This document shows positions 22,639 through 51,930 of a stretch of DNA of 64,000 nucleotides, one piece after another. Source of the stretch: Oscillospiraceae bacterium. Lineage in GTDB: Bacteria > Bacillota > Clostridia > Monoglobales > WRAG01. The stretch is taken from contig WRAG01000010.1 in the NCBI GenBank assembly GCA_009780345.1, positions 251 through 64,250 on the forward strand, written 5' to 3'. Both the position numbers and the translations under genes were made by a program. Position 1 is the stretch's first letter, and every line of letters starts with the position of its first letter. The notes beneath the pieces were generated by a model, which was not told the origin of the DNA, ran no database searches, and worked only from the letters and a program-made list of their open reading frames with translations.

Positions 22639-25600
22639 ATGAAAAAATTTGCATTTTTAATGGCTTTGATTTTTATTTTGGGGCTGCTTCCAATCAGCGG
22701 TGTCTATGTTAGCGCTGCTACCAGTATTAGTGATTTCACGATAATACCGGGTGAGGCTCATGATGTCGATTGGTCGGAAATTTATGATACCCTAAGACCC
22801 GGGCAAATTTGGACGGACAAATCTGTTTACTACCCGCAAGATTCGCTGACTGATGATTATGACGGAACGGTTGTCATTACCATTTACGTATGGGGCAGGC
22901 CTTACATGACCGAAAGCGGCGATTACGGAATGTTGGGTGGTAACCAAGAGGTAACAATCACCACTCAAATCGGCGATTTTCAACTTGAGGATTCTGTTTA
23001 TCCGGCAGGCGTTACTTTTTTGGAAGCCGCGAACGGAGTATTGCAATGGAGTATTCCTGAAGCGCTTATTACGGACCCCGACGAACCGTTAGCGGTACAT
23101 TTTTATCTTTATTTGGAAGATCGAGCAAATTGGCTGACAAATTTTTGGTATTCGACCAGCGGTTCATTCCTTGAAGTAAAGTTTGAGCCCGGGCTTGACA
23201 ATCCATACTACTGGACAACCGAAGAGGTTACATACAACGCGTTCGACGCGCCCACCATGAACTGGAACAACGGAACCGGACTCAACAGCGGAACGATTGT
23301 AGATAATGTTTTAGGCATAACCTTATCTTTCGGCAAAAACGCAAGCCCCGCTAATCAAACCGCGGCTTCCGTTCCTTGGGCAAACACAACTTATCGGAAT
23401 AATTACTGGGCTCAAAACGCCTTAGTTGTAGGTCGCCCTCAGCCATATTATTGGCATTTGTATTGGGTTAGAACCACTCCGAAGATATACATATTTACTG
23501 TGCACGGGTTAGTCACCGATGTTGACGGTACTGCGATTGATGTCGTTTATGAAATCTCGCTAGGCGGAATGGGCGGGAACTCTCCCGTGGCAGGAAGCAG
23601 AACAATTACAAGTGATGTGTATTTTAGAAGAACTTTTGTCGAAGGCGATCCGACTCAACTTTTCCACTGGGACGAAGAAGGATTCTTGGTTTACAGCACG
23701 CCGTTAATCGCGCAAATTATGCTGATTGACGAAGAATCGACGCATGACGTTTATTTCGGCTCTTTGATAATTGAAAAAGAATTTCCGCCCGATGGAGAAG
23801 ATTGGCGCCACCTTGATTGGGACGTAGATGATGAAACGCTATTTACCGTAAGGCTTAAAACTGACAACGATTTCTATGTAGTGCTCGAAGAAGGTCTTGC
23901 GCAAAATGAATTCCACTTCGACGGATTTACCGATAGACCGGAACTTGCGACCACAATTACTTTTTCGGTAGATGTTCCCGCTATCATTGAAGATTTGCCA
24001 AGGTATATGTCAGATGATGACGCCGCCAATAATATTCCGATATTGTATTCGGTACATGAATTTTTTGAAGGATTCTTCGAACCGAGAGATTGGCCGCTTG
24101 TTTACGAGCGGATTAATGTTTACTATTCTTTAGATTATGAAGAATTTTATCCGGAACCGCCCTCGTTCGAAATTATAAGTGAGGAATATAGAACCATCAC
24201 TATATTGAATAAATTTGAACACGGTATCGGATTTTTAGAAGTTTATAAACTTATGGACGGTTTCCCCGCCGATTGGGACGTGGATTATGATACCGTATTT
24301 TACATCCGCATTTGGGATGTATATGCGCAAAACTATTTGCTGTTCGACGCCGATCGTGAATTTGAACCCGGTTCGCCGTTTTACGGCACCATTTGGTGTA
24401 TCGGTAACCACGAAATCGGATTAACCGAGCCGCACGAAGGCCGCGTAATGATGGAAATTCCGATTAGCCGTAACCAACCCGTTCGGCTTTCGAACTTATG
24501 GACGTGGGGTAGTTATCAAGTCGTTGAAGTGCGTCAAGCAGACGCGGTGTTCCCGCAAGAGACCCAAGATCCGTTACTTGATCCTGATTGGATATATTTT
24601 TGGGATAACATCGCCGACCGCACGCCATTTTACCTGCGAACGCCGGCAGAATGGGCGGAAAGCTTTGCTTGGTTGCAAAATCGCATTGACAATGATTGGA
24701 CGGAAATCCGACAAGTCGTAACTGACGCCGAGTGGCACGCGGTGCCGATAGATGAGTGGTTTTGGGGCGTTATATATTCAGAAAACAACTTCACGACCTG
24801 TGACGATCCTTATTGCGATAATCAATACTGCGATGATCCCGATCACGATTGGAGCAATAGATTACATTTTAACCAAACCATTATTACAACAGTAACCAAT
24901 CGTTTCAAATTCCATTGCGGAACTTTGGTGTTCACTAAAGATCTTTGCGATAATGCCGCGGCTTGGGGAGTAGATGGAGATACTTCATTCTTCGCGCGGG
25001 TCAGAGCGGACGACGGCAGAATTTTAGTATTCGTTCCTGACGGCGATGACTTCCGAGTGATTGGATATATAGAATATAATGACGGTGTTTTCGGCACTTA
25101 TCAGGTTCTCTGCCCTGTCGGTGGAGCGAATCCGCCGGGACAACATATGATCGGCAACAGCCTTTTGCCCGGCAATCACTCGACGATCATTGAATTCAGC
25201 GCGAATTCTTCGACAAGACTTATAGAAGTGCCTTCATATCCGTTTGGATTTGATATTTATTACACGATTGAAGAAGCTTTCCCGTTCGGAGAGCCTCTCG
25301 GTTTCTTGGATAGTGAATATTTTATGGGAGAAGACGAAATTCCCGCCGGCGGGTTTATAGTTCCTCACGGTGAAACTATAGATATAACGATTCGCAATAC
25401 TTTCGAGCCGGGGAACGGAGAATTCATCATTTTCAAGGAATTAGCAGGTGAGTATGCGGCGTGGGATGTGGATGATACAACCGAATTCTTCGCGATTGTT
25501 GAGCGAGATAGTGATGAAGAACTTTTATACTTCATTTTTGACGCGGAGGAAGAAGTATTTGTGTATGTAAACGCGAATCCGACTTATTTTACAATCCCTG

Positions 25601-28344
25601 AAGGTGAGCCGCAAGCCGTTATTCCGTTTTCGGTAGAAAATCCGGCTGTTTTGGTGGGACTTAGCACTGACCACACCAATTATACGGTTTCTGAGGTAGG
25701 TAGTGACGGCGATCCGCTTGGCACCATTGCCGAAATCGGTTTTGTGGCAAATGTTGTCGGACCTGCTGTTAGTGGTTACAATTTACTTGTAACGATTACA
25801 AACAGATTTTACCCGCGGCCTAACATACCGACTTTCGGTGTAATCTATGACGGCAACGAAAACACAGGCGGCGAAGTTCCCGAGGATGACAACGAATATC
25901 TCGCCGGCGCGACTGTAACGGTGCTGGGTAACGCGGGAACTCCGCCTCTTACTCGAACCGGACATATTTTTATCGGTTGGAATACTCAAGCGGACGGTGG
26001 CGGCACGCCATATGTGGCTGGAGAAACATTCTTAATGCCTGCCAGATATGTTACGCTTTACGCGGAGTGGAAGCCTTTATTTACAGTAACCTACGACGGC
26101 AACGGCAACACCGGCGGCGATGTTACGATTGACGATAACGATTATATCGCCGGCGCAACCGTAACTGTATTAGGCAACGTTGCGCCTACCCCTCTAATCC
26201 GAACCAACTATAATTTTATCGGTTGGAATACTCAAGCGGACGGCGGCGGCACGCAATATGCTGCGGGAGAAACGTTCTTAATGCCTAACCGAAACGTTAC
26301 ACTTTACGCGCAATGGGAAAACATATACACCCCACCTACATTTACGGTAACTTACAACGGTAACGGCAACACCGGCGGTTCTGCCCCTGTTGACGATAAC
26401 GAATATAATACAGGCGCAATCGTAACCGTATTAGGCAACACCGCGCACGCGCCATTGGTTCGAACTAATTACGTTTTCGCGGGTTGGAACACACGACGCA
26501 ACGGAAGCGGCACGCAATACGCGGCAGGAGCTACGTTTACAATGCCTCCTCGAAACGTTACGCTTTACGCTCAATGGTATCCGGAAGATACATTTAACGT
26601 AATTTACGACGGCAACGGCGGGAATACAACAGGCACACCGCCGGCTGACTTGAACGATTACTACGGCGGAACTTTGGTAACCGTACTTGGTTCAGGTACA
26701 ATGAGCAATCCTAACTATGAGTTTATAGGTTGGAATACCGAGCCCAACGGTTCAGGCACGCACTTTAATATTGGTGATGATTTTGTGATGCCGTATGAGG
26801 ATGTTACGCTTTACGCTCAATGGTCGGCATACCCGACTTTTGAGGTGATTTATGTATCAACTCTGCATACAAGCGGTGTTGCTCCTGTTGATCCAAATAG
26901 ATACCTTGAGGGCGCGACGGTAACGGTAAGAAATCGAAACACACTCGCGCGAACCGATTGGGACTTTATCGGCTGGAGAAGCGACGACGGAACACTTTAC
27001 AAAATCGGCGATACTTTTGAAATGCCTGCTCGAAACGTTCGCTTAACCGCGGAATGGGCAGAACCGCCGACTTATACTATCACTTATGACGCAAATGATA
27101 ATGATGGCGGCTCGGCGTTCCAAGGAATCCTTCCGATTGACGAAAACCGTTATTTGCCGGGAAGTACTGCGACAGTAAGAGATCGAAATGACGCTCTCGG
27201 AATACCGCCTATTTCCAGATTAGGTTATACCTTAATTGGCTGGAATACCGCGTCCGACGGTTCAGGAGATTCCTTCGAACACGGTAACAGTTTGGTTATG
27301 CCTGCCGGAAATGTTACACTTTACGCGCAATGGCGGCGTAACAGCCATTCGCTGATTTACGACGCGAACGGCGGAACGGGAACACCGCCCGTTGACAACG
27401 GGAGTTATGCGGGCGACGGCTATGAAACTGTTGTAATACAAGACCAAGGCGAATTGCTTAGAGATCGGCACAGATTTATCGGCTGGAATACCGAGCCTGA
27501 CGGCAGCGGCGAGTGGTTCCAACCGGACGACACACTTACAATGCCCGATTCGGACGTAACGCTTTACGCGCAGTGGGAACATTTAGGCACTCCGCCTCCA
27601 CCACCTCCACCGGGACCGGGTTGGCGCCCGCCTCCTTCTTATGTTCCGATAAGACCAATACCGCCGCCTACCGCGAAAGACTTTTTCGTTGACGACCATA
27701 TTTGGTATATCCGCGGGTACGAGAATACCGAAATCAGACCGAACAACAACATCACCCGTGCGGAAATCGCAATGGTATTTTATCGTTTGCTAAGACCGGA
27801 ATTAAGGAATTTTACGCCGTATAATCCGTTTAACGATATAAACGGTGACGAATGGTTCGGGCTTGCGGTTGCTACGCTTGCGTATTACAACGTGTTCACC
27901 GGATATGAGGACGGGAATTTTGAACCTCATTCGCTTATTACAAGAAGAGAGTTCGCGGCAGTTGTTTCACGATTCGAGTATTTGGTTGCAACTAACGAAA
28001 ACCCATATAGCGACGTAGATTCGAACGACTGGGCGCGCAATTATATCCTTTCGGCAACCCAAAAAGGTTGGTTTGTCGGACACGGCGGAATGTTCAGACC
28101 GTCAGACAATCTTACTCGCGCCGAGCTTGTAACCGCTGTGAATCGCGTTCTTAATCGGCATATCTTGCTTGAAGATATTCCTGATGATGTGTTTAATTTC
28201 CCTGATTTAGACCGCACGCATTGGGCGTACGCGGCGTTCATGGAAGCCACACACACTCACGAGTTCGAAAGAAACGCCGACGGCAGAAATGAAACATGGA
28301 CAGAAATTTTAGGAACAGGTTTAGACGCGGCATATAACCAATAA
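22639..28344 (+). CDS. 1901-aa SLH-anchored surface protein: N-terminal domain, four prealbumin-like beta-sandwich modules, 7 Flg_new repeats, a poly-Pro linker and 3 SLH repeats
   Basis: Signal peptide. Repeated module signature (IIEKEFPPDGEDW.., LEVYKLMDGFPADW.., LVFTKDLCDNAAAW.., IIFKELAGEYAAW..). Seven units ending LYA[EQ]W between about 25830 and 27585. Linker PPPPPPPGPGWRPPP. SLH motifs with ITRAE / ITRRE / LTRAE. Confidence 0.85.
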   Translation: MKKFAFLMALIFILGLLPISGVYVSAATSISDFTIIPGEAHDVDWSEIYDTLRPGQIWTDKSVYYPQDSLTDDYDGTVVITIYVWGRPYMTESGDYGMLGGNQEVTITTQIGDFQLEDSVYPAGVTFLEAANGVLQWSIPEALITDPDEPLAVHFYLYLEDRANWLTNFWYSTSGSFLEVKFEPGLDNPYYWTTEEVTYNAFDAPTMNWNNGTGLNSGTIVDNVLGITLSFGKNASPANQTAASVPWANTTYRNNYWAQNALVVGRPQPYYWHLYWVRTTPKIYIFTVHGLVTDVDGTAIDVVYEISLGGMGGNSPVAGSRTITSDVYFRRTFVEGDPTQLFHWDEEGFLVYSTPLIAQIMLIDEESTHDVYFGSLIIEKEFPPDGEDWRHLDWDVDDETLFTVRLKTDNDFYVVLEEGLAQNEFHFDGFTDRPELATTITFSVDVPAIIEDLPRYMSDDDAANNIPILYSVHEFFEGFFEPRDWPLVYERINVYYSLDYEEFYPEPPSFEIISEEYRTITILNKFEHGIGFLEVYKLMDGFPADWDVDYDTVFYIRIWDVYAQNYLLFDADREFEPGSPFYGTIWCIGNHEIGLTEPHEGRVMMEIPISRNQPVRLSNLWTWGSYQVVEVRQADAVFPQETQDPLLDPDWIYFWDNIADRTPFYLRTPAEWAESFAWLQNRIDNDWTEIRQVVTDAEWHAVPIDEWFWGVIYSENNFTTCDDPYCDNQYCDDPDHDWSNRLHFNQTIITTVTNRFKFHCGTLVFTKDLCDNAAAWGVDGDTSFFARVRADDGRILVFVPDGDDFRVIGYIEYNDGVFGTYQVLCPVGGANPPGQHMIGNSLLPGNHSTIIEFSANSSTRLIEVPSYPFGFDIYYTIEEAFPFGEPLGFLDSEYFMGEDEIPAGGFIVPHGETIDITIRNTFEPGNGEFIIFKELAGEYAAWDVDDTTEFFAIVERDSDEELLYFIFDAEEEVFVYVNANPTYFTIPEGEPQAVIPFSVENPAVLVGLSTDHTNYTVSEVGSDGDPLGTIAEIGFVANVVGPAVSGYNLLVTITNRFYPRPNIPTFGVIYDGNENTGGEVPEDDNEYLAGATVTVLGNAGTPPLTRTGHIFIGWNTQADGGGTPYVAGETFLMPARYVTLYAEWKPLFTVTYDGNGNTGGDVTIDDNDYIAGATVTVLGNVAPTPLIRTNYNFIGWNTQADGGGTQYAAGETFLMPNRNVTLYAQWENIYTPPTFTVTYNGNGNTGGSAPVDDNEYNTGAIVTVLGNTAHAPLVRTNYVFAGWNTRRNGSGTQYAAGATFTMPPRNVTLYAQWYPEDTFNVIYDGNGGNTTGTPPADLNDYYGGTLVTVLGSGTMSNPNYEFIGWNTEPNGSGTHFNIGDDFVMPYEDVTLYAQWSAYPTFEVIYVSTLHTSGVAPVDPNRYLEGATVTVRNRNTLARTDWDFIGWRSDDGTLYKIGDTFEMPARNVRLTAEWAEPPTYTITYDANDNDGGSAFQGILPIDENRYLPGSTATVRDRNDALGIPPISRLGYTLIGWNTASDGSGDSFEHGNSLVMPAGNVTLYAQWRRNSHSLIYDANGGTGTPPVDNGSYAGDGYETVVIQDQGELLRDRHRFIGWNTEPDGSGEWFQPDDTLTMPDSDVTLYAQWEHLGTPPPPPPPGPGWRPPPSYVPIRPIPPPTAKDFFVDDHIWYIRGYENTEIRPNNNITRAEIAMVFYRLLRPELRNFTPYNPFNDINGDEWFGLAVATLAYYNVFTGYEDGNFEPHSLITRREFAAVVSRFEYLVATNENPYSDVDSNDWARNYILSATQKGWFVGHGGMFRPSDNLTRAELVTAVNRVLNRHILLEDIPDDVFNFPDLDRTHWAYAAFMEATHTHEFERNADGRNETWTEILGTGLDAAYNQ

Positions 28345-28506: not shown

Positions 28507-29526
28507 ATGAAACTAAAAAGACTTTTAATCGCGACACTATTGCTCGCATTGTGTGTAACGGCTTTCACCGCTTGTACCGGAGATACCCCGCAAGATACCT
28601 CACAAGACGGATCGTATGATTTCACGGTTGGGATACTCTCGGGTGCGAACATCCCTGCTTTTGAACTGGGAACGCCCGGTTTTCGAAACCGCTTGACAGA
28701 GCTTATGGAATCTGCAGGATTAACCGTGCGCTTTGAATATCGAAACGCGGGCGGAGATGCCGCAATGTCTACCACAATTTCGAACACTTTCGCGGCGCAA
28801 AATGTAGATTTGATATTTTCTCTCGGAACAAGCGCGTCGCAACGCGCGTTGCCGGTTGCGACGGCGGCGGGCATACCGTTGGTATTCGGTATAATCACCG
28901 ACCCTGTCGGCGCCGGACTTGTTTCAGACATATCCACCGGCGCGTCAAGCGCGCTGCCTATGGAAACACAAATAGATTTGTTGGAAGAATTGTTGGGAAG
29001 CGAACTTAACGGCGATAATCGCGTCGCTTTCTTGTACACAACCGATGAGGATAACTCGGTTGCGTCTCTTGGGCGTTTGCAAGCAGTTGCGCCGGAAGGA
29101 ACAATCGTACCTTTCGGAATACCGGCGAACGGATTAGGGCAACTTACGCAACTTTTCATCAATATTGCCGCTGATCCGTCAATCCGCGCGATTTATATCC
29201 CGCAAGACAATCAAATTACAGGAAATATGCAAATGGTTCAAAACTTAAACCACAACCAAGACGCTGATCGTCGATTGCCTGTCGTGGTTGCCGATTTGCC
29301 TATCGTGGCGAACGGTGCGCTTGCATCTTTGTCGGTTGACTTCGCGGCAAACGGCGCGGCGGCTGCGGATATCGCGTTTAATATTTTGATGAACGGAACT
29401 TGGCCCGCAACATTCTATTCGCCGACGGCGGCGTCTTTGTCGTTATACATCAATCAGACAGAAGCTGATGCAATTGACTTTATTATCCCCGCCGCATTGG
29501 TTTCAAGGGCGAACAGAACATTTTAA
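28507..29526 (+). CDS. ABC transporter substrate-binding lipoprotein (ABC_sub_bind / COG2984-like)
   Basis: Lipobox VTAFTAC|TG. Pattern VGILSGANIPAFELGTPGFRNRL..DLIFSLGTSASQ..IPLVFGIITDPVGAGLV. Confidence 0.75.
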   Translation: MKLKRLLIATLLLALCVTAFTACTGDTPQDTSQDGSYDFTVGILSGANIPAFELGTPGFRNRLTELMESAGLTVRFEYRNAGGDAAMSTTISNTFAAQNVDLIFSLGTSASQRALPVATAAGIPLVFGIITDPVGAGLVSDISTGASSALPMETQIDLLEELLGSELNGDNRVAFLYTTDEDNSVASLGRLQAVAPEGTIVPFGIPANGLGQLTQLFINIAADPSIRAIYIPQDNQITGNMQMVQNLNHNQDADRRLPVVVADLPIVANGALASLSVDFAANGAAAADIAFNILMNGTWPATFYSPTAASLSLYINQTEADAIDFIIPAALVSRANRTF

Positions 29527-29603
29527 AGTGATTTCATAAAACGATTTTTCAAATGGGGTTGTTGCCTTTGGCGGCAACCCCAAAAAACTACTGAAAAAAG
29601 AGG

Positions 29604-30545: not shown

Positions 30546-31291
30546 TAGAACTTCAAAATATATCACAAGTTTTTGACAACGGAGTCGAGAGAAACCAGGT
30601 GTTAAAGTGTTTAAACCTAACCATCCCCGAGGGGCAATTTGTTACTGTCATAGGTGGAAACGGCGCAGGCAAAAGTACGCTTTTTAACATTATAAACGGC
30701 AATATACGCCCTACTTCGGGCTCGATATTTTTTGACGGCAAAGATATTCAGAGGAAAAGCCACAGCGCGCGTGCGGCAATGATTGCTCGTGTGTATCAAG
30801 ATCCTAATTTCGGGCTTTGTCCTGATTTGACAATCGCGGAAAACATGGCGTTGGCGAATTCTCGCGGCAAATGGCGCGGACTTCAATGGGCCATCCGCAA
30901 AAAAGATATTGCTTTTTTCAAGGAAAGGCTGGCGGAGTTCGATTTAGGGCTCGAGAAAATGCTTCGCAAAAAAGCATCGCTTTTTTCAGGCGGGCAGAGG
31001 CAGGTCGTGACGCTGCTTATGGCGACGCTGCAAAAACCGAGGTTGCTGCTTCTGGACGAACACACGGCGGCGCTTGACCCGAAGATTGCAAAGCAAGTCA
31101 TGTGTATTACAAAAAAGCTGGTTGATGAGCAAAAAATAACAACCATAATGATTTCGCATAATATGAGCGACGCGATTACATATGGCGACAGGCTTATCAT
31201 GCTTAACCGCGGTGAAATCATTTTGGACGTTTCGGGCGAGGAAAAACAAAACCTTACCCCTGCGGAATTGATAACGATGTTTGAATCATAA
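30542..31291 (+). CDS. ABC transporter ATP-binding protein (COG1101-like)
   Basis: Walker A GGNGAGKST, signature FSGGQRQVVTL, Walker B LLLLDEHTAALD. Confidence 0.85.
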   Translation: MIELQNISQVFDNGVERNQVLKCLNLTIPEGQFVTVIGGNGAGKSTLFNIINGNIRPTSGSIFFDGKDIQRKSHSARAAMIARVYQDPNFGLCPDLTIAENMALANSRGKWRGLQWAIRKKDIAFFKERLAEFDLGLEKMLRKKASLFSGGQRQVVTLLMATLQKPRLLLLDEHTAALDPKIAKQVMCITKKLVDEQKITTIMISHNMSDAITYGDRLIMLNRGEIILDVSGEEKQNLTPAELITMFES

Positions 31292-32227: not shown

Positions 32228-32249
32228 TTTGTGAACACATCCTTTTTAA

Positions 32250-33470: not shown

Positions 33471-33495
33471 GTCTATCTCCTCGTGGGTTTATCAT

Positions 33496-42582: not shown

Positions 42583-45399
42583 GTGCTTAAAAAGCTAATA
42601 TCGACAATAATTGTAATAGTAATGTTTATATCGATTTTGCCTGCCCTCGCCATGCCTGACGTCAATGACCATTGGGCAAATGACGCAATTCAGCGTTGGT
42701 ATGACTTCGGCGTAGTCAGAGGTTACGACGACGGAACTTTCCGCCCCAATAACCTCATCACCCGCGCCGAATTCGCGACAATTATCAACCGCGTTTTAGA
42801 AAGCAACGCAACATCCGACGCAACGTTCCCCGACGTCGCCCAAAACGCTTGGTACGCAAGCGAAATACGGCAAGCGTACGCAACCGGCTTTATGCGCGGC
42901 GACGCGGACGGCACAATGCGCCCGAACGACAATGTTACCCGCGAGGAAGCGGCGGTTATGCTTGGCCGCGCCTTTAATGTGGCGGAAAATAGCGGAAACG
43001 AAAATCCTTTCGCCGACGCAGACGAAATTTCCGGCTGGGCAAGCTATCATGTCGACGGAATGAGAGCGGCAGGGTATATTACGGGCTATTACGACGGAAC
43101 TTTCCGCCCGCGGAACTATATTACCCGCGCGGAAACCGTGATTTTGATTGACCGAATCGCGTTAGAGTTTTATGAAGAAAATAATCGACCTACAACGCCC
43201 GCGCCGCCCATTATCGGCGGACCTTCGGGCGGCGGAAACTTTGGCGGCGGCGGTGGCAGACAACCGGGACCATCAGGACCTCCGATGCCGGGGCCGGGAC
43301 CGAGTCCTCAACCGTTCGTGTTCGAAATTCCAAGCGAAATCCGCGTGTCATCGCAAAGCCGCTTTTACCTTATAGATATAATCCAACTTTCCGACAACAC
43401 GATAGTAACATCTGAATTTTTGAATCATTCCGGCGAAGGTTCGCATATAAGTTTTGGCGGCGTGATTGACGAAATAGGCAAACAAATATTACTTCACGCC
43501 GGTGGGTGGAATATTGAACCGAGCAGCGAATTCACCCTTGAATTCACCGCAACCCGCGGAACCGAAACCTTGACACGTCAAATGACCGTAATTATCGAAG
43601 AATCAGAATGGTATTCTATTAATGCGAACAATATGCTTTGGGCGCGCACCCCGATAATACTTCCCGATATTACCGGCGATTATTGGATTAGCTATACGGT
43701 TTGGTATCGCGACGTAAGAAACGGCCGGATATTTGGTGGCGGTCGCGGGCGGAGCACTCTCCCCGCCGGCGAATTTGAAGTTATCGCAGGCGGCGTGATT
43801 CATAATTTCAATGGTTTCAGCGAAGAATTCAGCGAACTCGGCGGAATAATAGGATATGAAGACTCAACCTATGATATTGATTATTTGACCTCAATTATCT
43901 CTCCGAGACCGCCGCCGCCACCGCCGCCGCGTCCGTTTATTATGCCCGAGCACGATTTTGACTTAATCCCAAGCGTGCCGCCGCAAAACGTGATAATCAC
44001 GCAAGAGGACGTTAATAATTTCCACGAAATGGGAGATTATCATTGGGTGACAAAAGAACTACCCACAATCACCCTTGTGCCGCGCGCGCGAAGAACGTTC
44101 TCGCTTACAGGCATAATAATCGCACCAAGTAGCGTTACGGGAACGGCGAGTGTCACAGGAACGGCGTATGTGACCTTACAAAGCAGAATGGAAGATTTCT
44201 ATTTCGGACATAGGTACACCCGAACAATCGAAGTTCCGATAAACGACATACTCACGGAGTATAGGTTCGACAACGTTCCAATGGGCGTATATGATATAAT
44301 CGTTGACTTAAACCGAACCAATATTGCGCAAATCTCGACGGTTCTAAACCAAAACCGAACAGGTCACAACATCGTACTAATCGCGTCGGACAGAGAAATG
44401 GGGCGCGTTGCGGGAACCATAACCATCGACCGCGCCGTGGATTGGGATATGAGCGTATGGGTTAACATTTCCAGAGGTTATTCTAATTTTTGCCCTGAAT
44501 CAGGCGCGGGAAGCAGCTGGTCAGTCTCATATTGGGGGGACGGCTTTATTATCCCCGCAGGACAAACAAGCGTAGACTTCCTTTCCTCGCGACTGCCGAC
44601 CGGCGAATATGATATTCAGGTTTCTATAGCGAACACTTTAACCGATTATATTTCAGATGCCGTTCAAATAACCAACACTACCGTGCAAAAAGACTTCGAT
44701 TTCACCGTCGGACAGAGAATCACCGGAAGAGTTGAAAATTGGCAACGGTTTGCAGAACCATGGATGCCTAGTAATAATCCGAATAGAGTAATAGTAAGCC
44801 TTGTCCATCCATACACGCTAACTTCAAGATCGATGACGATCGCTCCGTTCCCTCGTCCGCCGTCGGGTGGTGGCACGTGGCCTTGGCCGTCGCCAAGCGG
44901 AAATTTCGGATTTCACGGTCTTGAAAGCGGAACATATGAAGTCAGCGTTGTATTGGAACGGTGGACTTCCGGAAGTTTTCAAACAATTGTGCTCGCCAGA
45001 GAAGAAATCATTATCACCGATTCCGACATTTCGGGCGTAAACTTCGACCTTGCCGACGTTAATCTTTCTTACGAAATCGAGCGTATCGAATTTGAGGGCG
45101 TAGAACTGTCGCAAGATCCGAACAACCCGACGATTTTGCCGTTCCCTAATACTGTGCAAATTGTAGGTAACACCATTTTCGCACATAGGCAGGTTAGTAT
45201 ATATAGGTATATTAATGGCGTACATCAAGGTATATTAAGAGATAGATTTGGAAGCGACAGCACAATAAACATTCCAATGTGGTGGGGAAATGATGAACCG
45301 ATTTCGTTTCAAATTGTCGTTCGCAATTTTGACGGCACATTCCTTGCCGAAAGCGCAACATACTATGTTATTTTGAGTTATAATGGGCATAGCGTGTAG
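42583..45399 (+). CDS. 938-aa surface protein with three N-terminal SLH repeats, Pro/Gly linkers and beta-sandwich-like C-terminal domains. Its last codons and stop come from MITE copy 3.
   Basis: RBS AAGGAG with GTG start. Signal peptide. SLH repeats (DVNDHWANDAI..ITRAE, FPDVAQNAWY..VTREE, FADADEISGW..ITRAE). Linkers GGGRQPGPSGPPMPGPGPSP and RPPPPPPPRP. The final codons aat ggg cat agc gtg tag lie inside the repeat. Confidence 0.8.
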   Translation: MLKKLISTIIVIVMFISILPALAMPDVNDHWANDAIQRWYDFGVVRGYDDGTFRPNNLITRAEFATIINRVLESNATSDATFPDVAQNAWYASEIRQAYATGFMRGDADGTMRPNDNVTREEAAVMLGRAFNVAENSGNENPFADADEISGWASYHVDGMRAAGYITGYYDGTFRPRNYITRAETVILIDRIALEFYEENNRPTTPAPPIIGGPSGGGNFGGGGGRQPGPSGPPMPGPGPSPQPFVFEIPSEIRVSSQSRFYLIDIIQLSDNTIVTSEFLNHSGEGSHISFGGVIDEIGKQILLHAGGWNIEPSSEFTLEFTATRGTETLTRQMTVIIEESEWYSINANNMLWARTPIILPDITGDYWISYTVWYRDVRNGRIFGGGRGRSTLPAGEFEVIAGGVIHNFNGFSEEFSELGGIIGYEDSTYDIDYLTSIISPRPPPPPPPRPFIMPEHDFDLIPSVPPQNVIITQEDVNNFHEMGDYHWVTKELPTITLVPRARRTFSLTGIIIAPSSVTGTASVTGTAYVTLQSRMEDFYFGHRYTRTIEVPINDILTEYRFDNVPMGVYDIIVDLNRTNIAQISTVLNQNRTGHNIVLIASDREMGRVAGTITIDRAVDWDMSVWVNISRGYSNFCPESGAGSSWSVSYWGDGFIIPAGQTSVDFLSSRLPTGEYDIQVSIANTLTDYISDAVQITNTTVQKDFDFTVGQRITGRVENWQRFAEPWMPSNNPNRVIVSLVHPYTLTSRSMTIAPFPRPPSGGGTWPWPSPSGNFGFHGLESGTYEVSVVLERWTSGSFQTIVLAREEIIITDSDISGVNFDLADVNLSYEIERIEFEGVELSQDPNNPTILPFPNTVQIVGNTIFAHRQVSIYRYINGVHQGILRDRFGSDSTINIPMWWGNDEPISFQIVVRNFDGTFLAESATYYVILSYNGHSV

Positions 45400-45569: not shown

Positions 45570-45611
45570 TGATTAAACGCTGAAAAGCGTTGACACATAA
45601 AGGATTTACAC

Positions 45612-45690: not shown

Positions 45691-48600
45691 CTAGATAATC
45701 ACATCTTCCGCTCTCGCGTTCGGCAATTGCAACATTGCCCAGTTGCGCGCGGGGGCTTGGGGTGAGGAATTAGACGCAATCTGCATCGCCCAATAGAACC
45801 AAGCGCTTGTGTTCGCGTTATCTATCCAAGTTTTCATGTTCGCCGTATCAATATCGGTTGCCGTACGACTTAGCACACGGTTAACTATTGTCGCGAACTC
45901 TGCTCTTGTGATATTTGCGTCCGGATTAAAGTTTCCGTATTGATCACCCTGTATCCAACCGATTTGTGCCGCTAGGTTAATATTATTTCTCGCCCAACTG
46001 TCGGAAATATAAGGGAACATATCTGTTGTGCCACGATATTGCGCTTCGTCGTGTAAAAACCGTGTCATAACCGTGACAACTTCCGCCCGTGTAATTGGCA
46101 GATTCGGTCTGAAAGTGCCATCCGGAAAGCCTGTCATTATTCCCTTATGATTCGCCGTCGATATTGCATTGCTAAACCAAGCTTCGCCATTGTTCGGCAC
46201 ATCAGAGAACGGGTTTTCAAGCGTCCAGTAAGCGGCTCTCGTTTCATCGCTTACAATCCGTAAGAGAATGCTCGCCACTTCAGCGCGGGTAATAACATCG
46301 TTCGGCGCGATGTGGTTATTTCCTTCTCCGATAAGGTAGGAATAGTGAATTTCTGTCAAAGTAACATCCTGCCTAAATCCCGGGTCTTGAATTTCCGGTT
46401 CCCGATTTCCAGAATCTATAAATATCGGAGGTCTAAATACCGGATCGTTAAATCCCGGATTTTGATTAGCGGTCCAATGCGCGTATAGGGTGTGATCGCT
46501 TGTTTGTGTCACCAAACTTGATGCAAGTACACGCGTTCCGCCGTTTGCGTTAGTGAACCATCCCAAGAAGGTATGCCCTGCTCTGGTTGGCGTTGTGATT
46601 ACGTTAAACGCGCTTTGATATGTGCCGCCAACGGTAACTGACGCGGTTTGTGTTGCGGGCGCGCCGCCGTTTGCGTCGAATGTCACCGTAATAGTCGGCG
46701 GTGGCGGCGGCAGTTCAGGCGCCCATTGCGCGTAAAGAGTAGTATCTATCGATGGAACATTGCTCAAATCGGTAATTTGTGTCCCGCCCGTCTGCGCGTC
46801 AAACCAGCCTTGGAACACAAAACCCGTCTGCGTCGGCTCTGTCACCGAAGCGAGGATAGACGCGTAACTGCTACCTACCACGTTCCCGCTCACAACCAGT
46901 GGCGTCGGCGTTCCGCCGTTCCCGTCAAAGGTAATCGTCACCGTTGGAAGCGGCGCCCATTGCGCGTAAAGCGTTTGATCCGCCGTCGCCGTTACTATAT
47001 CGGCAGGCTGCACCTGCGTTCCGCCAATGATTTGCGTGAACCAACCTACAAAGTCGCTGTCTGCCATAATCGGAGTTGTAACAGCGGCGAATGGTGCTTC
47101 ATAGGTGTTACCGCTTATCGCTGGCTCTTCCTGCATGGCGGGCGTTGCTCCCAGCGAGTCAAAGATGATATTAATCTGAAGCGGTGCCCATTGCGCGTAA
47201 AGCGTTGTGTTTGTTGCCGGAATTATGTCCGCGTCTGCAATCTTGACGCCTCCTGTCGGCGCGTCAAACCAACCGAGGAACGTGTAAAATTCTTGCGTAG
47301 GCTCTGTAACTGAAGCAAGCGTAACGGCATAAGTGCCGCCGATAATTTTGCCGGATACGACTTGAATTGCTGGTGTTCCGCCGTTCGCGTCAAAGGTTAT
47401 CGTAACTGTCGGGTCTGCAATCCAATGCGCGTAAAGCGTTTGATCTGCTGTTGCTGTTACGATCGTTGTGTCGAGAATTTGCACGCCGCTCGTATCTCCG
47501 TTAGGCGTGGTAAACCAGCCGGCAAAAATATAGCCGAATTGTGTTGGTGTTGCGACTTGCGACAAAGCACTTGCGTATGTGCCTGTCACTTGAACCGGTG
47601 TTACTGTCTGCGTTGCAGGCGTGCCCCCCTGTGCGTCAAAGGTGACGGTGATAGTGGGAACCGGCGCCCACTGCGCGTAAAGCGTCGTATCCGCCGACGG
47701 AACAGAGCTTGAATCGGTAATCTGCGTGCCGCCCGTCTGTGCGTCAAACCAGCCTTGGAACACAAAATCGGTTTGCGTCGGTTCGGAGACCGAAGCGAGG
47801 ATAGGCGCATAGCTGTTGTTAGGCGCGTTTCCGCTCACAACCTGCGTCGTGGGATCGCCACCGTTCGCGTCAAAGGTGATAGTGACCGTCGGATCGGCAA
47901 TCCAGCGCGCGTAAAGCGTTTGATCCGCCGTCGCGGTAACCGTCGTCGTGTCGAGAATCTGCACAGCGCCCAATGTTCCGCTCGGCCCGGTAAACCAGCC
48001 GTTGAAAACGTAACCCGCGAGCGACGGATTCGCGATTTCGCCAAACGCCGCCGCGTATGTGCCGCCGACTGTAACCGTTGCCGTCTGCCCGTCGGGCGCG
48101 CCGCCCTGCGCGTCGAAAGTGACATTAATTGTCGGTTCGGGAGTCCACCACGCGTAAACGTAAACCGTTGTAGCATACGGAGGCACCAAGTACCCCGGGC
48201 TAACTGTGCTTCCGCCCATACCTTGCGGTTGGTCGTGCCAACCATTAAAGATATACCCCGCCAAAGTCGGCGTTGTAATTGCGTTAAGAGCAGAGGCGTA
48301 GGTTGAAAGAGGAATCTGACCGCCCACGGTCTGTGTCGCGGGGCTGCCGCCTTGCGCGTCAAATATTATCGTAACAGTAACTGAAACCCAGTGTGCGTAA
48401 AGGATTTGGTCGGTTGTCGCCGTCACAACTGTGGTCGGAAGAATCTGAACGCCGCTCGTATCTCCGTCCGGGGTTGTGAACCAGCCACTAAATGCGTAAC
48501 CCATTTTCGACGGAACTTGGACTTGGGACAGCGCGGGCCCGTAGAGAGTTCCGGTTTCCAATATTTGCTGTTGCCCGTCGGGCGTGCCGCCTTGCGCGTT

Positions 48601-51600
48601 GAAGGTTACGTTGATTGGCGGGATTGGAGCCCATTGGGCGTAGTATGTTGTGTCGGTTGCGGGGATTATGCTGCTGTTTGTGATCTCTGTCCCGCCCGTC
48701 TGCGCGTCATACCAGCCCATGAACGTGTAGCCGGGTAGGGTGGGAGGTTGGATAAAGTAATCCACTAAAACCTCCATGCCAACAACCGCGCCGCGCCGTA
48801 CTTGCGTTGCAGGCGAACCGCCTTGCGAGTCGAAAGTAAGTGTAACGGTGGGCGTGATGTCCCAATGGACATAAAGGGTGATTCCGTCGGGCGCATCCCA
48901 CACAATTGACGTTGGCAGAACTTGCACACCGCTTGTATCACCGTTTGGAGTCGTCCACCAGCCGCCGAAATAGTAATAATTGCCGCTCGGAGGGGTTGGG
49001 TCCGCTGTGGCCGACATCGCTTGCATAAAAGTTCCGCCTATCGTAACAGGCTCATGGTAAGCAAGCGTTTGGTCGGGCGAAAGCGTCGTTCCCGCGCCCG
49101 GAATTATGTCAGCCGGGTTAAAATATCCCCCCTGCGCGTCAAAAGTAACGGTGATAGTGGGAACCGGCGCCCACTGCGCGTAAAGCATCGTATCCACCGA
49201 CGGAACAGAGCTTGAATCTGTAATCTGCGTTCCGCCGCTCTGCGCGTCAAACCAGCCTTGGAACACAAATCCGAGCTGCGTCGGCTCTGTAACCGAAGCA
49301 AGGATAGGCGCATAGCTGCTACCCGGCGCGTTTCCGCTCACAACCTGCGTCGCGGGATCGCCGCCGTTCGCGTCAAAGGTAATTGTAAGTGTCGGATCGA
49401 CAATCCAGTGCGCGTAAAGGGTTTGATCCGCCGTCGCCGTAACCGTCGTCGTGTCGAGAATCTGCACGGCGCCCAATGTTCCGCTCGGCTCGGTAAACCA
49501 GCCGTTAAAAATGTAGCCCGCCAACGACGGATTCGCGATTTCGTCGAAAGCCGCCGCGTATGTGCCGCCGACTGTAACCGTCGCGGTTTGCCCGTCGGGC
49601 GCGCCGCCCTGCGCGTCGAAAGTGACATTAATTGTCGGCTCAGGCGTCCACCACGCGTAAACGTAAACCGTCGTAGCATACGGAGGCACCAAGTACCCCG
49701 GGCTCACTGTGCTTCCGCCCATGCCTTGCGGTTGATCGTGCCAACCATTAAAGATATAACCCGGCAAAGTCGGCGTTGTAATTGCGTTAAGAGCAGAGGC
49801 GTAGGTTGAAAGTGGAATCTGACCGCCCACGGTCTGTGTCGCGGGGCTGCCGCCTTGCGCGTCAAATATTATCGTAACAGTAACCGAAACCCAGTGCGCG
49901 TAAAGGATTTGGTCTGTCGTTTCCGTCACGACGGTGGTCGGGAGAATCTGAACGCCGCTCGTATCTCCGTCCGGCGTTGTGAACCAGCCACTAAATGCGT
50001 AGCCCATTTTCGACGGAACTTGGACTTGGGACAGCGCGGGGCCGTAGAGAGTTCCGGTTTCCAATATTTGCTGTTGCCCGTCGGGTGTGCCGCCTTGCGC
50101 GTTGAAGGTTACGTTGATTGGCGGGATTGGAGCCCATTGGGCGTAGTATGTCGTGTCGGTTGCGGGGATTATGCTGCTGTTCGTGATCTCCGTCCCGCCC
50201 GTCTGCGCGTCATACCAGCCCATGAACGTATAGCCGGGTAGCGTGGGGGTTGCAATCGCAAGGAGAGTGGCGGCAAATGTATCGCCGATGACTCTGCTTG
50301 GCACGACTTGAATGGGTGGCGTTCCGTCGTTTGCGTCAAAGGTAATAGTAACCGTCGGTTCGGCAATCCAATGCGCGTAAAGCGTTTGGTTTGTCATTGT
50401 TGTAACGACGGTATTGTTAAGAATTTGCACGCCGCTATTATCTCCATTCGGCGTGGTAAACCAACCGCGGAAAATATAGCCGGTTTGCGTCGGTGTTACA
50501 ACTTGCGACAAAGCGTTTGCGTATGTGCCGGTTACTTGAACCGATGTTACCGCCTGCGTTGCAGGCGTGCCGCCCTGCGCGTCGAAAGTCAGCGTAATTG
50601 GCGCCGCGTATTGCGCAACGTAAGCAGTATTATCGCTGATTAGCGTTGTAAGCACTTGGGCAGAGGTCAAAACAGTAACGCCGCCGTCCGATGACCAGCC
50701 GATAAACCCGTAATTTGCGTTAGGTTGCGGAATCGGTGATATAGTCGGGACAAGCGGACTATTAGTGGTGGGAATACTCTGTTGCGTCTGCGTTCCTGCC
50801 GTAAAAGTTCCATTTGTGCCCGGATCAAAGGTAACTGTCAGAGACATAATCATAGCGCCCGAATTATAATAGTTGATGTCAGAGTTATTGAGCGGACTGT
50901 TAAAAATAGAACTGTATATCGACTGTATCTGCGTTGACGTTGCTACGTTAGGCGGCGGAATTCGCGCGCCGTTTCCTGCAACGTTGCCTGTAAATACAAC
51001 ATTCGAACCAATGATTAGATTGTTATAAACATTGTTATGCAACGGATTACTATAGTCATTTTGCGCAGAAAATATACCGCCGCCGTTGCCGCTGGCGGTG
51101 TTATTGCTGATCGTGCCGCCGCTTATCGTTATCAGTCCGGACGCGTCAGTATGGATACCGCCGCCATAGACTGTGCGGTTATTGGTGATAAGTCCACCGG
51201 TCATGGTCAGATTCGCCGCCTTCAGCTCGACGCCGCCGCCAACTGCGACAGCAGAGGTCGCCACATTGCCGGTAATCATGCCGCCGGAGATGGTGCCGTA
51301 TCCGTTTCTGATTTCCACGCCACCGCCGCTTGAAGAAGCAGTATTTCCGCTGATTATGCCACCTGTCATGGTGAAGGTGCTATTGCCTTCCAAAAGTACG
51401 CCTCCGCCGGCCCAAGAGGAGGTATTGTTTGTAATAAGACCGTCGTTCATGATAAGCGATCCCTGATTGCTTACATGCACAGCGCCCCCGTATGCAGCGT
51501 TTCCGCCTCCGGGCGCACGGCTGTTTGTGATTGTGCCGCCGCTTTCGATCGTAAGCGTCCCTCCGAGAACATCCACGCCGCCGCCGACAATAGTGCCGCC

Positions 51601-51930
51601 CGGTCCGCTCAGCGTAACATTTTGAAGAGTCAAATTTCCGGTTACACTAAAGTGCCGCTGACCGGTCGTGGCTTGTGTAAAGGTAAATGTCGAACCTGCC
51701 ACGCTTGTGAGGACGATATTTTGACCGGCGGCGATTGCAATCGCCCCGCCGGTGGCAGAGAAACTGTTTTCAAGTTCAATCGTCGTCACCGTTCCGTCTG
51801 TCGGCGCCGCGGCAATAGCTACCGCAAGGTCACTATAGCTTGTGACACTAACCGGCGCCGCGAATACTGTGGGAGCGAGAAGTCCTCCCAAAAGAGCTAC
51901 AACTAAGAATAATGATAAAAACTTTTTCAT
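45691..51930 (-). CDS. 2079-aa SLH-anchored surface protein: PMP-type parallel beta-helix repeats, ~18 Flg_new repeats and 3 SLH repeats
   Basis: RBS GGAGGG and a signal peptide. GGA[VI]/GGG[VI] with F/I-x-x-N repeats (GGAVHVSNQGSLIMNDGLITNN, GGGVLLEGNSTFTMTGGIISGN, and others). I counted eighteen units ending Y[AV][QHR]W. SLH motifs with ITRAE three times. Confidence 0.85.
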   Translation of the reverse strand: MKKFLSLFLVVALLGGLLAPTVFAAPVSVTSYSDLAVAIAAAPTDGTVTTIELENSFSATGGAIAIAAGQNIVLTSVAGSTFTFTQATTGQRHFSVTGNLTLQNVTLSGPGGTIVGGGVDVLGGTLTIESGGTITNSRAPGGGNAAYGGAVHVSNQGSLIMNDGLITNNTSSWAGGGVLLEGNSTFTMTGGIISGNTASSSGGGVEIRNGYGTISGGMITGNVATSAVAVGGGVELKAANLTMTGGLITNNRTVYGGGIHTDASGLITISGGTISNNTASGNGGGIFSAQNDYSNPLHNNVYNNLIIGSNVVFTGNVAGNGARIPPPNVATSTQIQSIYSSIFNSPLNNSDINYYNSGAMIMSLTVTFDPGTNGTFTAGTQTQQSIPTTNSPLVPTISPIPQPNANYGFIGWSSDGGVTVLTSAQVLTTLISDNTAYVAQYAAPITLTFDAQGGTPATQAVTSVQVTGTYANALSQVVTPTQTGYIFRGWFTTPNGDNSGVQILNNTVVTTMTNQTLYAHWIAEPTVTITFDANDGTPPIQVVPSRVIGDTFAATLLAIATPTLPGYTFMGWYDAQTGGTEITNSSIIPATDTTYYAQWAPIPPINVTFNAQGGTPDGQQQILETGTLYGPALSQVQVPSKMGYAFSGWFTTPDGDTSGVQILPTTVVTETTDQILYAHWVSVTVTIIFDAQGGSPATQTVGGQIPLSTYASALNAITTPTLPGYIFNGWHDQPQGMGGSTVSPGYLVPPYATTVYVYAWWTPEPTINVTFDAQGGAPDGQTATVTVGGTYAAAFDEIANPSLAGYIFNGWFTEPSGTLGAVQILDTTTVTATADQTLYAHWIVDPTLTITFDANGGDPATQVVSGNAPGSSYAPILASVTEPTQLGFVFQGWFDAQSGGTQITDSSSVPSVDTMLYAQWAPVPTITVTFDAQGGYFNPADIIPGAGTTLSPDQTLAYHEPVTIGGTFMQAMSATADPTPPSGNYYYFGGWWTTPNGDTSGVQVLPTSIVWDAPDGITLYVHWDITPTVTLTFDSQGGSPATQVRRGAVVGMEVLVDYFIQPPTLPGYTFMGWYDAQTGGTEITNSSIIPATDTTYYAQWAPIPPINVTFNAQGGTPDGQQQILETGTLYGPALSQVQVPSKMGYAFSGWFTTPDGDTSGVQILPTTVVTATTDQILYAHWVSVTVTIIFDAQGGSPATQTVGGQIPLSTYASALNAITTPTLAGYIFNGWHDQPQGMGGSTVSPGYLVPPYATTVYVYAWWTPEPTINVTFDAQGGAPDGQTATVTVGGTYAAAFGEIANPSLAGYVFNGWFTGPSGTLGAVQILDTTTVTATADQTLYARWIADPTVTITFDANGGDPTTQVVSGNAPNNSYAPILASVSEPTQTDFVFQGWFDAQTGGTQITDSSSVPSADTTLYAQWAPVPTITVTFDAQGGTPATQTVTPVQVTGTYASALSQVATPTQFGYIFAGWFTTPNGDTSGVQILDTTIVTATADQTLYAHWIADPTVTITFDANGGTPAIQVVSGKIIGGTYAVTLASVTEPTQEFYTFLGWFDAPTGGVKIADADIIPATNTTLYAQWAPLQINIIFDSLGATPAMQEEPAISGNTYEAPFAAVTTPIMADSDFVGWFTQIIGGTQVQPADIVTATADQTLYAQWAPLPTVTITFDGNGGTPTPLVVSGNVVGSSYASILASVTEPTQTGFVFQGWFDAQTGGTQITDLSNVPSIDTTLYAQWAPELPPPPPTITVTFDANGGAPATQTASVTVGGTYQSAFNVITTPTRAGHTFLGWFTNANGGTRVLASSLVTQTSDHTLYAHWTANQNPGFNDPVFRPPIFIDSGNREPEIQDPGFRQDVTLTEIHYSYLIGEGNNHIAPNDVITRAEVASILLRIVSDETRAAYWTLENPFSDVPNNGEAWFSNAISTANHKGIMTGFPDGTFRPNLPITRAEVVTVMTRFLHDEAQYRGTTDMFPYISDSWARNNINLAAQIGWIQGDQYGNFNPDANITRAEFATIVNRVLSRTATDIDTANMKTWIDNANTSAWFYWAMQIASNSSPQAPARNWAMLQLPNARAEDVII
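47624..50247 (-). repeat. Two ~1.12-kb near-identical direct repeats at a 1503-nt offset inside the 2079-aa gene
   Basis: The protein block TLPGYTFMGWYDAQTGGTEITNSS ... YAQWAPVPTITVTFDAQGG (~385 aa) occurs twice with few substitutions. Antisense shadow ORF pairs share peptides at a 1503-nt offset: 47755..48306 with 49258..49809, and 48391..48738 with 49855..50241. Confidence 0.85.

Follow-up and report, generated by a model that had tools for sequence, protein, structure and literature searches.

A 64-kb stretch of DNA (hereafter, the window) from a metagenome-assembled genome (MAG) of a termite-gut Oscillospiraceae carries a surface-protein cluster that spans ~29 kb, and within it a three-gene operon at 31370..39372 that encodes three cohesins and one dockerin. 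We read this operon as a non-cellulosomal cohesin-dockerin system that tethers proteins to the cell surface, and give this reading a probability of about 0.6. Pairs of cohesin and dockerin are familiar above all from cellulosomes, which they hold together, but a growing number is known from other extracellular assemblies such as amylosomes and mucinolysomes. An initial annotation of the window had described the region as an island of giant secreted proteins evolving by domain shuffling and internal duplication, and had overlooked the cohesins and the dockerin. On the evidence of the encoded sequences, the clustered genes specify seven cell-envelope proteins that this uncultured bacterium would export by the Sec route; the cohesin-dockerin operon is the functionally coherent core of the region.

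The operon lies on the minus strand, where genes for proteins of 1958, 406 and 285 amino acids (aa) follow one another head to tail with gaps of 25 and 22 nucleotides (nt). A Shine-Dalgarno sequence precedes each of the three genes. The features of the operon, in window coordinates, are as follows (SLH, S-layer homology; Ig, immunoglobulin; AF2, AlphaFold2):

33496..39372, minus strand: 1958-aa mosaic protein, first gene of the operon; in order, a signal peptide, two tandem modules, an Ig-like module, a cohesin, a dockerin and an S-layer-type domain
38260..39264, minus strand: tandem ~165-aa modules of the 1958-aa protein (aa 37-200 and 206-371), 72-75% mutually identical, with no detectable cohesin
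36778..37014, minus strand: Ig-like module of the 1958-aa protein (aa 787-865), common to the 882-aa protein of the cluster
36244..36717, minus strand: cohesin of the 1958-aa protein (aa 886-1043), from an AF2 model, Foldseek and a family profile; no Pfam match
36040..36243, minus strand: dockerin of the 1958-aa protein (aa 1044-1111), a sub-threshold Dockerin_1 match with first calcium loop DIDGDGTIDLLD
33499..35991, minus strand: S-layer-type all-beta domain, aa 1128-1958 of the 1958-aa protein; shares 63% identity with the SLH-bearing protein P0002 discussed below
32250..33470, minus strand: 406-aa predicted SLH-anchoring scaffoldin, middle gene of the operon; Pfam Cohesin and SLH
32970-33386, minus strand: cohesin of the 406-aa protein (aa 29-167), Pfam match at aa 34-165
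32829-32963, minus strand: Asp/Gly- and Pro-rich linker of the 406-aa protein, between cohesin and SLH
32256-32801, minus strand: SLH triplet of the 406-aa protein (aa 224-405), SLH E-value (E) 7.6e-29
31370..32227, minus strand: 285-aa stand-alone cohesin protein, third gene of the operon; cohesin at aa 46-182 (31682-32092), followed by an unannotated C-terminal part of ~100 aa

The cohesin of the 406-aa protein is recognized by Pfam (PF00963, 40.1 bits against a cutoff of 24.1), and the protein matches by sequence cellulosomal cohesins, among them the solved structures 6kg8 and 3ul4, as well as the SLH domain of Sap in the PDB. Anchoring to the wall through SLH involves a triplet of SLH units that bear motifs of the TRAE type, and a wall polymer that CsaB pyruvylates. 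The motifs TRAE, TRAM and TREQ are visible in the sequence of the 406-aa protein; no csaB-like gene was found among the window open reading frames (ORFs) scanned. Published categories of cohesin proteins include the SLH-anchoring scaffoldin, the monovalent adaptor and the single-cohesin protein (PMC11481507). As a predicted secreted protein with a cohesin and three SLH units, the 406-aa protein falls into the first of these; the 1958-aa protein, which has one cohesin and one dockerin, is a monovalent adaptor.

The two other cohesins escape standard profiles. Pfam finds no Cohesin at E<=0.01 in the 285-aa or the 1958-aa protein, the former has no Pfam match of any kind, and the sole match of the latter is Dockerin_1 (PF00404, aa 1048-1081), at 21.4 bits against a cutoff of 22.9. 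The loop DIDGDGTIDLLD is the only canonical dockerin calcium loop in the window, and is found in the gene adjoining the anchor gene. Dockerins typically have two duplicated loop-helix segments that bind calcium; the second loop, in this protein and in a subgroup of its relatives, is longer and has no aspartate ladder. Directly upstream of the dockerin loop, residues 893-1041 of the 1958-aa protein are 31% identical to the 285-aa protein. An AF2 model of residues 880-1125, built on a 25-member alignment, consists of a beta-sandwich followed by a helical module (predicted local distance difference test, pLDDT, 88; predicted template-modelling score, pTM, 0.73). When this model is submitted to Foldseek, the top 50 PDB matches are all cohesins, with a best E of 1.7e-10 and target-normalised template-modelling (TM) scores of 0.78-0.80; in the model, aa 886-1043 are superposable on solved cohesins, which are nine-stranded beta-sandwiches. 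A profile derived from this cohesin finds its counterpart in the 406-aa protein at E 1e-26. It also matches the 285-aa protein, at E 1.3e-23, which identifies the latter, at the level of sequence, as the probable carrier of a cohesin of the same family. The tandem modules at aa 37-371 were also considered as extra cohesins and rejected: they have no cohesin-profile match, and their hhalign probability (0.5%) equals that of the control.

Cohesin and dockerin of the 1958-aa protein form a unit of ~225 aa (Coh-Doc, residues ~893-1111) that recurs widely. A word-indexed search with the full 1958-aa protein retrieved only itself, and relatives came from an exhaustive HMMER search, in which both halves of the unit are present in 63 of the 150 representative matches listed. 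The unit stands at the extreme C-terminus in 53 of these 63, and its carriers, 200-2600 aa long, are otherwise unrelated. Members of the family show Pfam Cohesin and Dockerin_1 in tandem, mostly below the gathering score; in one of them, P0018, Dockerin_1 reaches 60.5 bits.

The exhaustive search splits the relatives of the 1958-aa protein into three classes, according to the region that they match:

Residues ~761-913 (Ig-like repeat): repeated 5-17 times in other giant proteins
Residues ~893-1111 (Coh-Doc): at the C-terminus of many diverse proteins
Residues ~1128-1958: a family of ~1000-1100-aa proteins, aligned from their residue ~225

All five close relatives tested for the C-terminal domain start with SLH, and in SLH-bearing relatives the homology with the 1958-aa protein begins at their residue ~225, which in P0002 is where SLH ends. 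Among 37 relatives of this domain, SLH is found in 25 and Coh-Doc in two: P0106, where a signal peptide, Coh-Doc and the C-terminal-type domain follow each other, and P0123, where the domain comes first and Coh-Doc second. The giant Coh-Doc proteins of related loci align with window residues 851-1128 only, and the alignment ends there. The abutment of the two homology blocks at residue ~1128 shows that a payload-Coh-Doc protein was joined to an S-layer-type domain. Read from these alignments, the 1958-aa protein is a fusion in which cohesin and dockerin stand where a signal peptide and an SLH triplet would be, and this is the one clear domain-shuffling event that sequence comparison documents in the region. 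The junction is identical (100%) in two short-read assemblies of the same sample, which are not independent samples, and G+C content at third codon positions (GC3) is even along the gene, at 0.35-0.36. For the C-terminal 830 aa, AF2 predicts an all-beta multi-domain chain (pLDDT 80), for which Foldseek gave only spurious DDB1 matches (TM ~0.09) and no solved structural relative; no similarity in sequence or fold to solved S-layer proteins was found either. The 938-aa protein of the cluster was tried as a paralogue of this domain and set aside, the family hidden Markov model (HMM) giving no match to it.

The closest relative of the C-terminal domain is P0002 (MCL2837532.1), an Oscillospiraceae MAG protein named 'S-layer homology domain-containing protein', which has SLH at its N-terminus and is 63% identical over the last 830 residues of the 1958-aa protein. 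Its gene sits in a housekeeping locus, between pyrG and tsaD. The contig of P0002 and that of the window have in common ENA assembly ERZ27257297 and Logan run SRR5215140, and the accession of P0002 lies ~600 below those of the operon (MCL2838137-139). Both genes depart in GC3 from their surroundings: 0.32 for the P0002 gene against 0.49 for its neighbours, and 0.36 for the 1958-aa gene against about 0.5. P0002 very probably comes from the same MAG as the window, as judged from provenance rather than from a closed genome, so that two versions of the S-layer-type protein, one anchored by SLH and one with cohesin and dockerin, are probably encoded by this bacterium.

The arrangement recurs elsewhere. 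A metagenome scan with a tight 7-sequence Coh-Doc alignment yielded seven JGI metagenome loci, two of which have contig-name prefixes equal to those of termite-gut MAG contigs, and local profile annotation covered nine loci, window included. In six of the nine (the window, L005, L011, L012, L013 and L015), a Coh-Doc gene lies directly beside an SLH-bearing gene and is accompanied by a gene with an N-terminal cohesin. Four of these SLH neighbours, those of the window, L005, L012 and L013, also give a cohesin match; the SLH gene is cut by the contig end in L011 and L012. The gene order of L013 is that of the window: its anchor aligns with the 406-aa protein over the full length (E 2e-45), and its N-terminal-cohesin protein, of 2309 aa, can be aligned at the N-terminus with the 285-aa protein, beginning at the signal peptide. 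As the 285-aa protein is homologous to the N-terminus of 2100-2300-aa proteins of this kind in related loci, it may be a shortened form of them. In L007, a cohesin gene adjoins the Coh-Doc gene. Across loci the cohesins are 30-42% identical and group by position (adaptor, anchor, N-terminal), not by locus. Together, the common arrangement and the position-wise clustering point to a conserved system with functionally differentiated cohesins.

The genomic context of P0123 is locus L005 (ENA ERZ28654157, 1-13766), which belongs to a different organism (GC 0.38). There, an anchor with SLH and cohesin is followed by dockerin proteins whose cargo is LRR_5/Big_2 and Peptidase_M23/LRR_5, by P0123, by a Coh-Coh-Doc adaptor and by another cohesin protein. 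This uninterrupted series of genes is a more elaborate form of the system seen in the window. Over the related loci, the domains detected on the cargo of dockerin proteins are LRR_5, Big_2, Peptidase_M23, PKD (faint), Flg_new_2 (weak) and S-layer-type domains, and no glycoside hydrolase or carbohydrate-binding module (CBM) is listed among it.

In the tethering system that we propose, the 406-aa protein would bind a wall polymer through its SLH triplet, its single cohesin being held out by the Pro-rich linker. Into this cohesin would plug, in the presence of calcium, the dockerin that lies midway along the 1958-aa protein. This plug would tether a protein that has lost its own SLH module, and whose C-terminal 830 residues are a predicted paralogue of an SLH-anchored S-layer-type protein. 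The cohesins of the 1958-aa and 285-aa proteins, which represent the two other conserved classes, would take dockerins encoded elsewhere or those of other copies of the 1958-aa protein; for the latter, Amy4 of Ruminococcus bromii (PMC4611034) is a precedent.

Several points weigh against such a system. The operon has three cohesins and a single dockerin, and the proposed pairing with the 406-aa cohesin is drawn from the closeness of the two genes and from what is known of SLH-anchoring scaffoldins. The dockerin scores just below its threshold (21.4 bits against 22.9) and its second calcium loop is degenerate. L016 and L017 have a Coh-Doc protein with no anchor within 10 kb, so that adjacency to an anchor is not universal. 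There being no match to a solved S-layer protein, the term 'S-layer-type' reflects only the SLH, the ~800-aa architecture and the housekeeping context of the relatives, and P0002 is assigned to the MAG by its provenance. Finally, only 64 kb of the genome is seen, and dockerin-bearing enzymes may be encoded elsewhere in it.

Could cohesin and dockerin instead act on each other? The dockerin would then bind the cohesin of the next 1958-aa molecule, forming chains or a mesh, or the cohesin would buttress the dockerin in the manner of the X-module of X-dockerin dyads; the 406-aa anchor would be only the base of such a structure, or unrelated to it. Conservation of the ~225-aa unit in at least 63 representative clusters and the pTM of 0.73 for both modules together speak in favor of this reading, as does Amy4 of Ruminococcus bromii, whose dockerin was shown experimentally to bind its own cohesin (PMC4611034). 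However, adaptor-class and anchor-class cohesins are distinct and conserved across loci, as would be expected if their partners differ, and in six of the nine loci, counting the window, the unit lies beside an SLH gene, which in four cases also shows a cohesin. We regard a self-acting pair as unlikely.

The operon might also belong to a cellulosome or another polysaccharide-degrading complex, with the 406-aa protein as anchoring scaffoldin, the 1958-aa protein as adaptor, and free cohesins recruiting glycoside hydrolases with dockerins from other parts of the genome. In favor of this are the host, a termite-gut Oscillospiraceae, the lack of a visible partner in the window for two cohesin classes, and an architecture that fits an 'SLH-anchoring scaffoldin' with a 'monovalent adaptor' (PMC11481507). 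A cellulosome comprises dockerin-bearing glycoside hydrolases and a primary scaffoldin with several cohesins or a CBM. However, Pfam finds no glycoside hydrolase, CBM or other carbohydrate-active enzyme (CAZyme) domain in any of the seven proteins, and with its one dockerin the window by itself does not contain a cellulosome. Cargo domains detected in related loci are likewise non-CAZyme. In addition, a survey of termite-gut MAGs counted ~1.1 cohesins per Oscillospiraceae genome and reported a 'virtual lack of cellulosomes' in clostridial lineages (PMC11481507). On balance a degradative complex seems quite improbable. As for a chance neighbourhood of unrelated surface genes built from common Firmicute modules, with vestigial cohesins and dockerin, this is disfavored and very improbable: modules common to the island genes are only 25-37% identical, an ATP-binding cassette (ABC) importer interrupts the cluster and the second dockerin loop is degenerate, but the three cohesin genes form a tight operon, the cohesin fold and first calcium loop are well conserved, and the arrangement recurs with class-specific cohesins in independent loci that, at cohesin identities of 30-42%, are not near-identical copies of a single lineage.

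The proposed tethering system has counterparts among characterised proteins. With one cohesin, a Pro-rich linker and an SLH triplet, the 406-aa protein resembles OlpA and OlpC of Acetivibrio (Clostridium) thermocellum; it matches the OlpA cohesin chain 3ul4_A by sequence, and the fold of the window cohesin family matches Coh-OlpA (3ul4) and Coh-OlpC (4dh2). The predicted cargo differs, being a giant non-enzymatic mosaic with an S-layer-type domain instead of an enzyme or a multi-cohesin primary scaffoldin. The host differs as well: here it is an Oscillospiraceae, whereas characterised Ruminococcus systems anchor by non-SLH (sortase) means. Cohesin and dockerin are also united in one polypeptide in Amy4, from the R. 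bromii amylosome, and in ScaC of R. flavefaciens, and the Amy4 dockerin binds other cohesins in addition to its own (PMC4611034). In contrast to these, the 1958-aa protein has no GH13 (glycoside hydrolase family 13) or other catalytic domain, and Coh-Doc, ~225 aa long and tightly conserved, mostly forms the very C-terminus of large proteins that are highly diverse; in the 1958-aa protein itself it is internal, with 830 more residues behind it. The 285-aa protein, made of a signal peptide, one cohesin and a short tail, is reminiscent of ScaG/CohG of R. flavefaciens, whose structures 4n2o and 4wkz are among the structural matches of the window cohesin family, and 'single cohesin proteins of unknown function' have been listed before (PMC11481507). 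Unlike ScaG, it is homologous to the N-terminus of 2100-2300-aa proteins, and no X-dockerin partner is evident.

As in Sap and EA1 of Bacillus anthracis, relatives of the C-terminal domain combine an N-terminal SLH triplet with a domain of ~800 aa (SLH in 25 of 37), but no sequence or fold similarity links them to solved S-layer proteins, and in the window protein cohesin and dockerin replace SLH. Non-cellulosomal cohesin and dockerin modules were reportedly treated by Peer et al. in 2009 (as cited in PMC9012536). Archaeal ANME (anaerobic methanotroph) cohesin/dockerin proteins and the Limousia 'mucinolysome' (PMC12997984) are further cases of extracellular linking outside cellulose degradation. 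All these non-cellulosomal systems are described for enzymes or uncharacterised proteins, unlike the one proposed here. The literature searched contains no account of an SLH S-layer-type protein with a paralogue that bears a dockerin and is encoded beside an SLH-cohesin anchor.

Outside the operon, the 29-kb region encodes SLH-anchored surface proteins in a cluster of a kind ordinary for Firmicutes. Its other features are listed below (LRR, leucine-rich repeat):

22639..28344, plus strand: 1901-aa surface protein, with an unannotated N-terminal 1060 aa, seven Flg_new repeats, a Pro-rich linker and a C-terminal SLH triplet
25831-27579, plus strand: Flg_new array of the 1901-aa protein (aa 1065-1647), seven units by iterated profile
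~27709-28188, plus strand: C-terminal SLH triplet of the 1901-aa protein, from Pfam/profile
28507..31291, plus strand: ABC importer; ABC_sub_bind, BPD_transp_2 and ABC_tran, that is substrate-binding protein, permease and ATPase
39633..42281, plus strand: 882-aa BspA/DUF285 LRR protein, with DUF285 at ~40518-41105, Ig-like module at 41352-41609, a Gly-rich linker and C-terminal SLH at 41841-42278
42583..45399, plus strand: 938-aa protein, with an N-terminal SLH triplet at 42649-43173, a Gly/Pro linker and a 740-aa unannotated region
45691..51930, minus strand: 2079-aa protein, with a possible parallel beta-helix at the N-terminus, 18 Flg_new repeats at 46471-50841 and C-terminal SLH at 45781-46338
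47624..50252, minus strand: internal duplication in the 2079-aa gene, blocks 47624-48750 and 49127-50252

The initial annotation is partly confirmed in its observations and partly supported in its interpretation. All seven ORFs that it listed in the 29 kb as secreted proteins (1901, 285, 406, 1958, 882, 938 and 2079 aa) are present exactly at its coordinates, and a typical basic/hydrophobic/AxA-type signal peptide is seen on every one of the proteins, their N-termini being judged by inspection. It was also right in counting five SLH proteins, with SLH at the C-terminus in those of 1901, 406, 882 and 2079 aa and at the N-terminus in that of 938 aa. Judging from sequence, these five would attach non-covalently to the wall through their own SLH triplets, and would display arrays of Flg_new, LRRs of the BspA type or unannotated domains; most likely they serve as adhesins or envelope proteins. 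Its Flg_new counts (7 and ~18) agree with the 7 and 18 repeats that an iterated profile finds in the 1901-aa and 2079-aa proteins, Pfam alone finding 6 and 16. The Ig-like module that it assigned to both the 1958-aa (787-865) and 882-aa (574-659) proteins is borne out at 35% identity over 86 aa (E 4e-5 to 9e-7), BspA/DUF285 repeats are found in the 882-aa protein as DUF285/PARCEL (E 2.7e-45), and the unrelated importer that splits the cluster carries all three expected domains. A Pro- or Gly-rich linker, said to precede each SLH block, does so in three proteins, of 1901, 406 and 882 aa; that of the 938-aa protein comes after SLH, and the 2079-aa protein has no clear low-complexity run.

Two of the proposed modules were not recovered. 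A chlamydial-PMP-like beta-helix gave no Pfam match at E<=1 and no PDB sequence match; in residues 1-380 of the 2079-aa protein, the only match is the TIGR03804 parallel beta-helix repeat, below threshold (E 0.009, 15.7 bits against a cutoff of 19.45). An F-L-R-F beta-sandwich, claimed to be common to the proteins at 131..4234 and 39633..42281, amounts to a BLAST alignment of 43 aa at E 0.008, and hhalign scores it no better than controls (20.3, against up to 17.7 for shuffled controls and 19.4 for an unrelated segment). The first of these proteins is 1372 aa long and extends over 116-4234 of the window. It had been credited with three Flg_new repeats: it does consist of three ~410-aa units, 31-42% identical, with only two Flg_new segments (386-461 and 802-880), one of them found by Pfam. 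Each unit is an unannotated ~300-aa module followed by a Flg_new-like segment. The GC3 of its gene (0.34) is low like that of the cohesin operon, and a tRNA follows at 4565-4638.

A surface-protein locus with internal duplication is what we find: the proteins are secreted and wall-associated by prediction, and repeats inside genes are confirmed. In the 2079-aa gene, a 1127-nt block is duplicated at 93% identity (47624-48750 and 49127-50252), which points to a recent duplication, and adjacent Flg_new units of the 1901-aa protein are up to 67-68% identical. The 2079-aa gene stands clearly above its neighbours in GC (0.54) and GC3 (0.56, against about 0.5 in housekeeping genes), and the difference is largest over the Flg_new repeats. 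Of this gene, only a 481-aa fragment is present in the NCBI record, where the contig has 64,295 nt; the repeat array may therefore be assembly-sensitive. Searches of Pfam, NCBIfam and the PDB gave nothing for the N-terminal 1060 aa of the 1901-aa protein (22639-25818), where acidic 'W(D/G)VD..T.F' segments recur and hint at a repeated module not described before. As for domain shuffling, it holds for the one fusion described above, which the initial annotation did not list. SLH, Flg_new and Ig-like modules belong to widespread families and are only 25-37% identical between genes, so that recent exchange among the island genes is unsupported.

Support is weak for the region being an accessory or variable island. 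When ~15 billion proteins are clustered at 90%, each of the surface proteins remains a singleton. The ABC importer is conserved at 69-81% aa identity in a related termite-gut MAG, and a synteny search with its permease found only three loci. One of them, from the nearest relative with flanks, is informative: the surface genes are absent beside the importer there, but the other flanks are also unconserved. As the whole neighbourhood differs in this relative, island-specific loss is inseparable from general rearrangement. No mobility signature bounds the 29 kb, and GC3 across the region is heterogeneous (0.34-0.56), with no coherent block.

Other elements of the window deserve a brief description. 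Just left of the surface cluster lies a sortase gene (19511-20275); no window protein ends in an LPXTG-type sorting signal, and wall attachment is seen only via SLH or cohesin-dockerin. An intergenic element of ~190-200 nt occurs in three copies (4305-4503, 20324-20522 and 45378-45577) of 87-90% identity. It is bounded by TTATAATG...CATTATAA and comprises about six consecutive short hairpins with conserved stems and variable loops. It looks like a miniature repeat, similar to a miniature inverted-repeat transposable element (MITE) or a repetitive extragenic palindrome (REP), or like a structured RNA. It has no Rfam family and no copy in any other locus examined, and so offers no link between the P0002 contig and the window. 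Genes for a large serine recombinase (52070..53653) and a Mob_Pre relaxase (58220..59455) lie in a low-GC stretch (0.31-0.41) at 52070-62000, directly right of the 2079-aa gene and separate from the surface cluster. Together with repeats of 57 nt that contain a palindrome (54128-54184 and 57932-57988) and a tRNA (61589-61669), they probably make up a mobilizable element that has integrated here. Finally, this Oscillospiraceae may metabolize methyl groups from methanol or methoxy compounds, since a methanol:corrinoid methyltransferase set is encoded at 7010-10700: MtaB (9207..10700, E 3e-168), a corrinoid protein that binds B12 (8100..8732) and a GTPase of the CobW type (7010..7969).

The locus adds a cohesin-dockerin case whose detectable cargo is structural or adhesive rather than enzymatic, and includes an S-layer-type paralogue in which the SLH module gave way to a cohesin-dockerin unit. 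With two of its three cohesins invisible to Pfam, cohesin surveys based on standard profiles (which give, e.g., ~1.1 per genome) probably underestimate such systems. A tentative extension of the tethering system, which we consider possible though doubtful, is that the S-layer-type protein swapped SLH wall binding for a cohesin-dockerin tether, that its C-terminal domain would form a lattice by co-assembling with the SLH-anchored paralogue, and that the N-terminal half of ~1100 residues, with its free cohesin, would project as a docking platform. If so, the three-class arrangement of adaptor, SLH anchor and N-terminal cohesin would be a modular 'programmable S-layer' display, unrelated to polysaccharide degradation, and would explain the orphan cohesins in termite-gut Oscillospiraceae genomes that lack cellulosomes. 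Should the predicted pairing of dockerin and anchor hold, the operon would provide three cohesin classes that form a compact set and are orthogonal by nature, a defined fusion breakpoint showing the exchange of wall-anchoring modules, and, for the engineering of surface display, a conserved cohesin-dockerin tag of ~225 aa.

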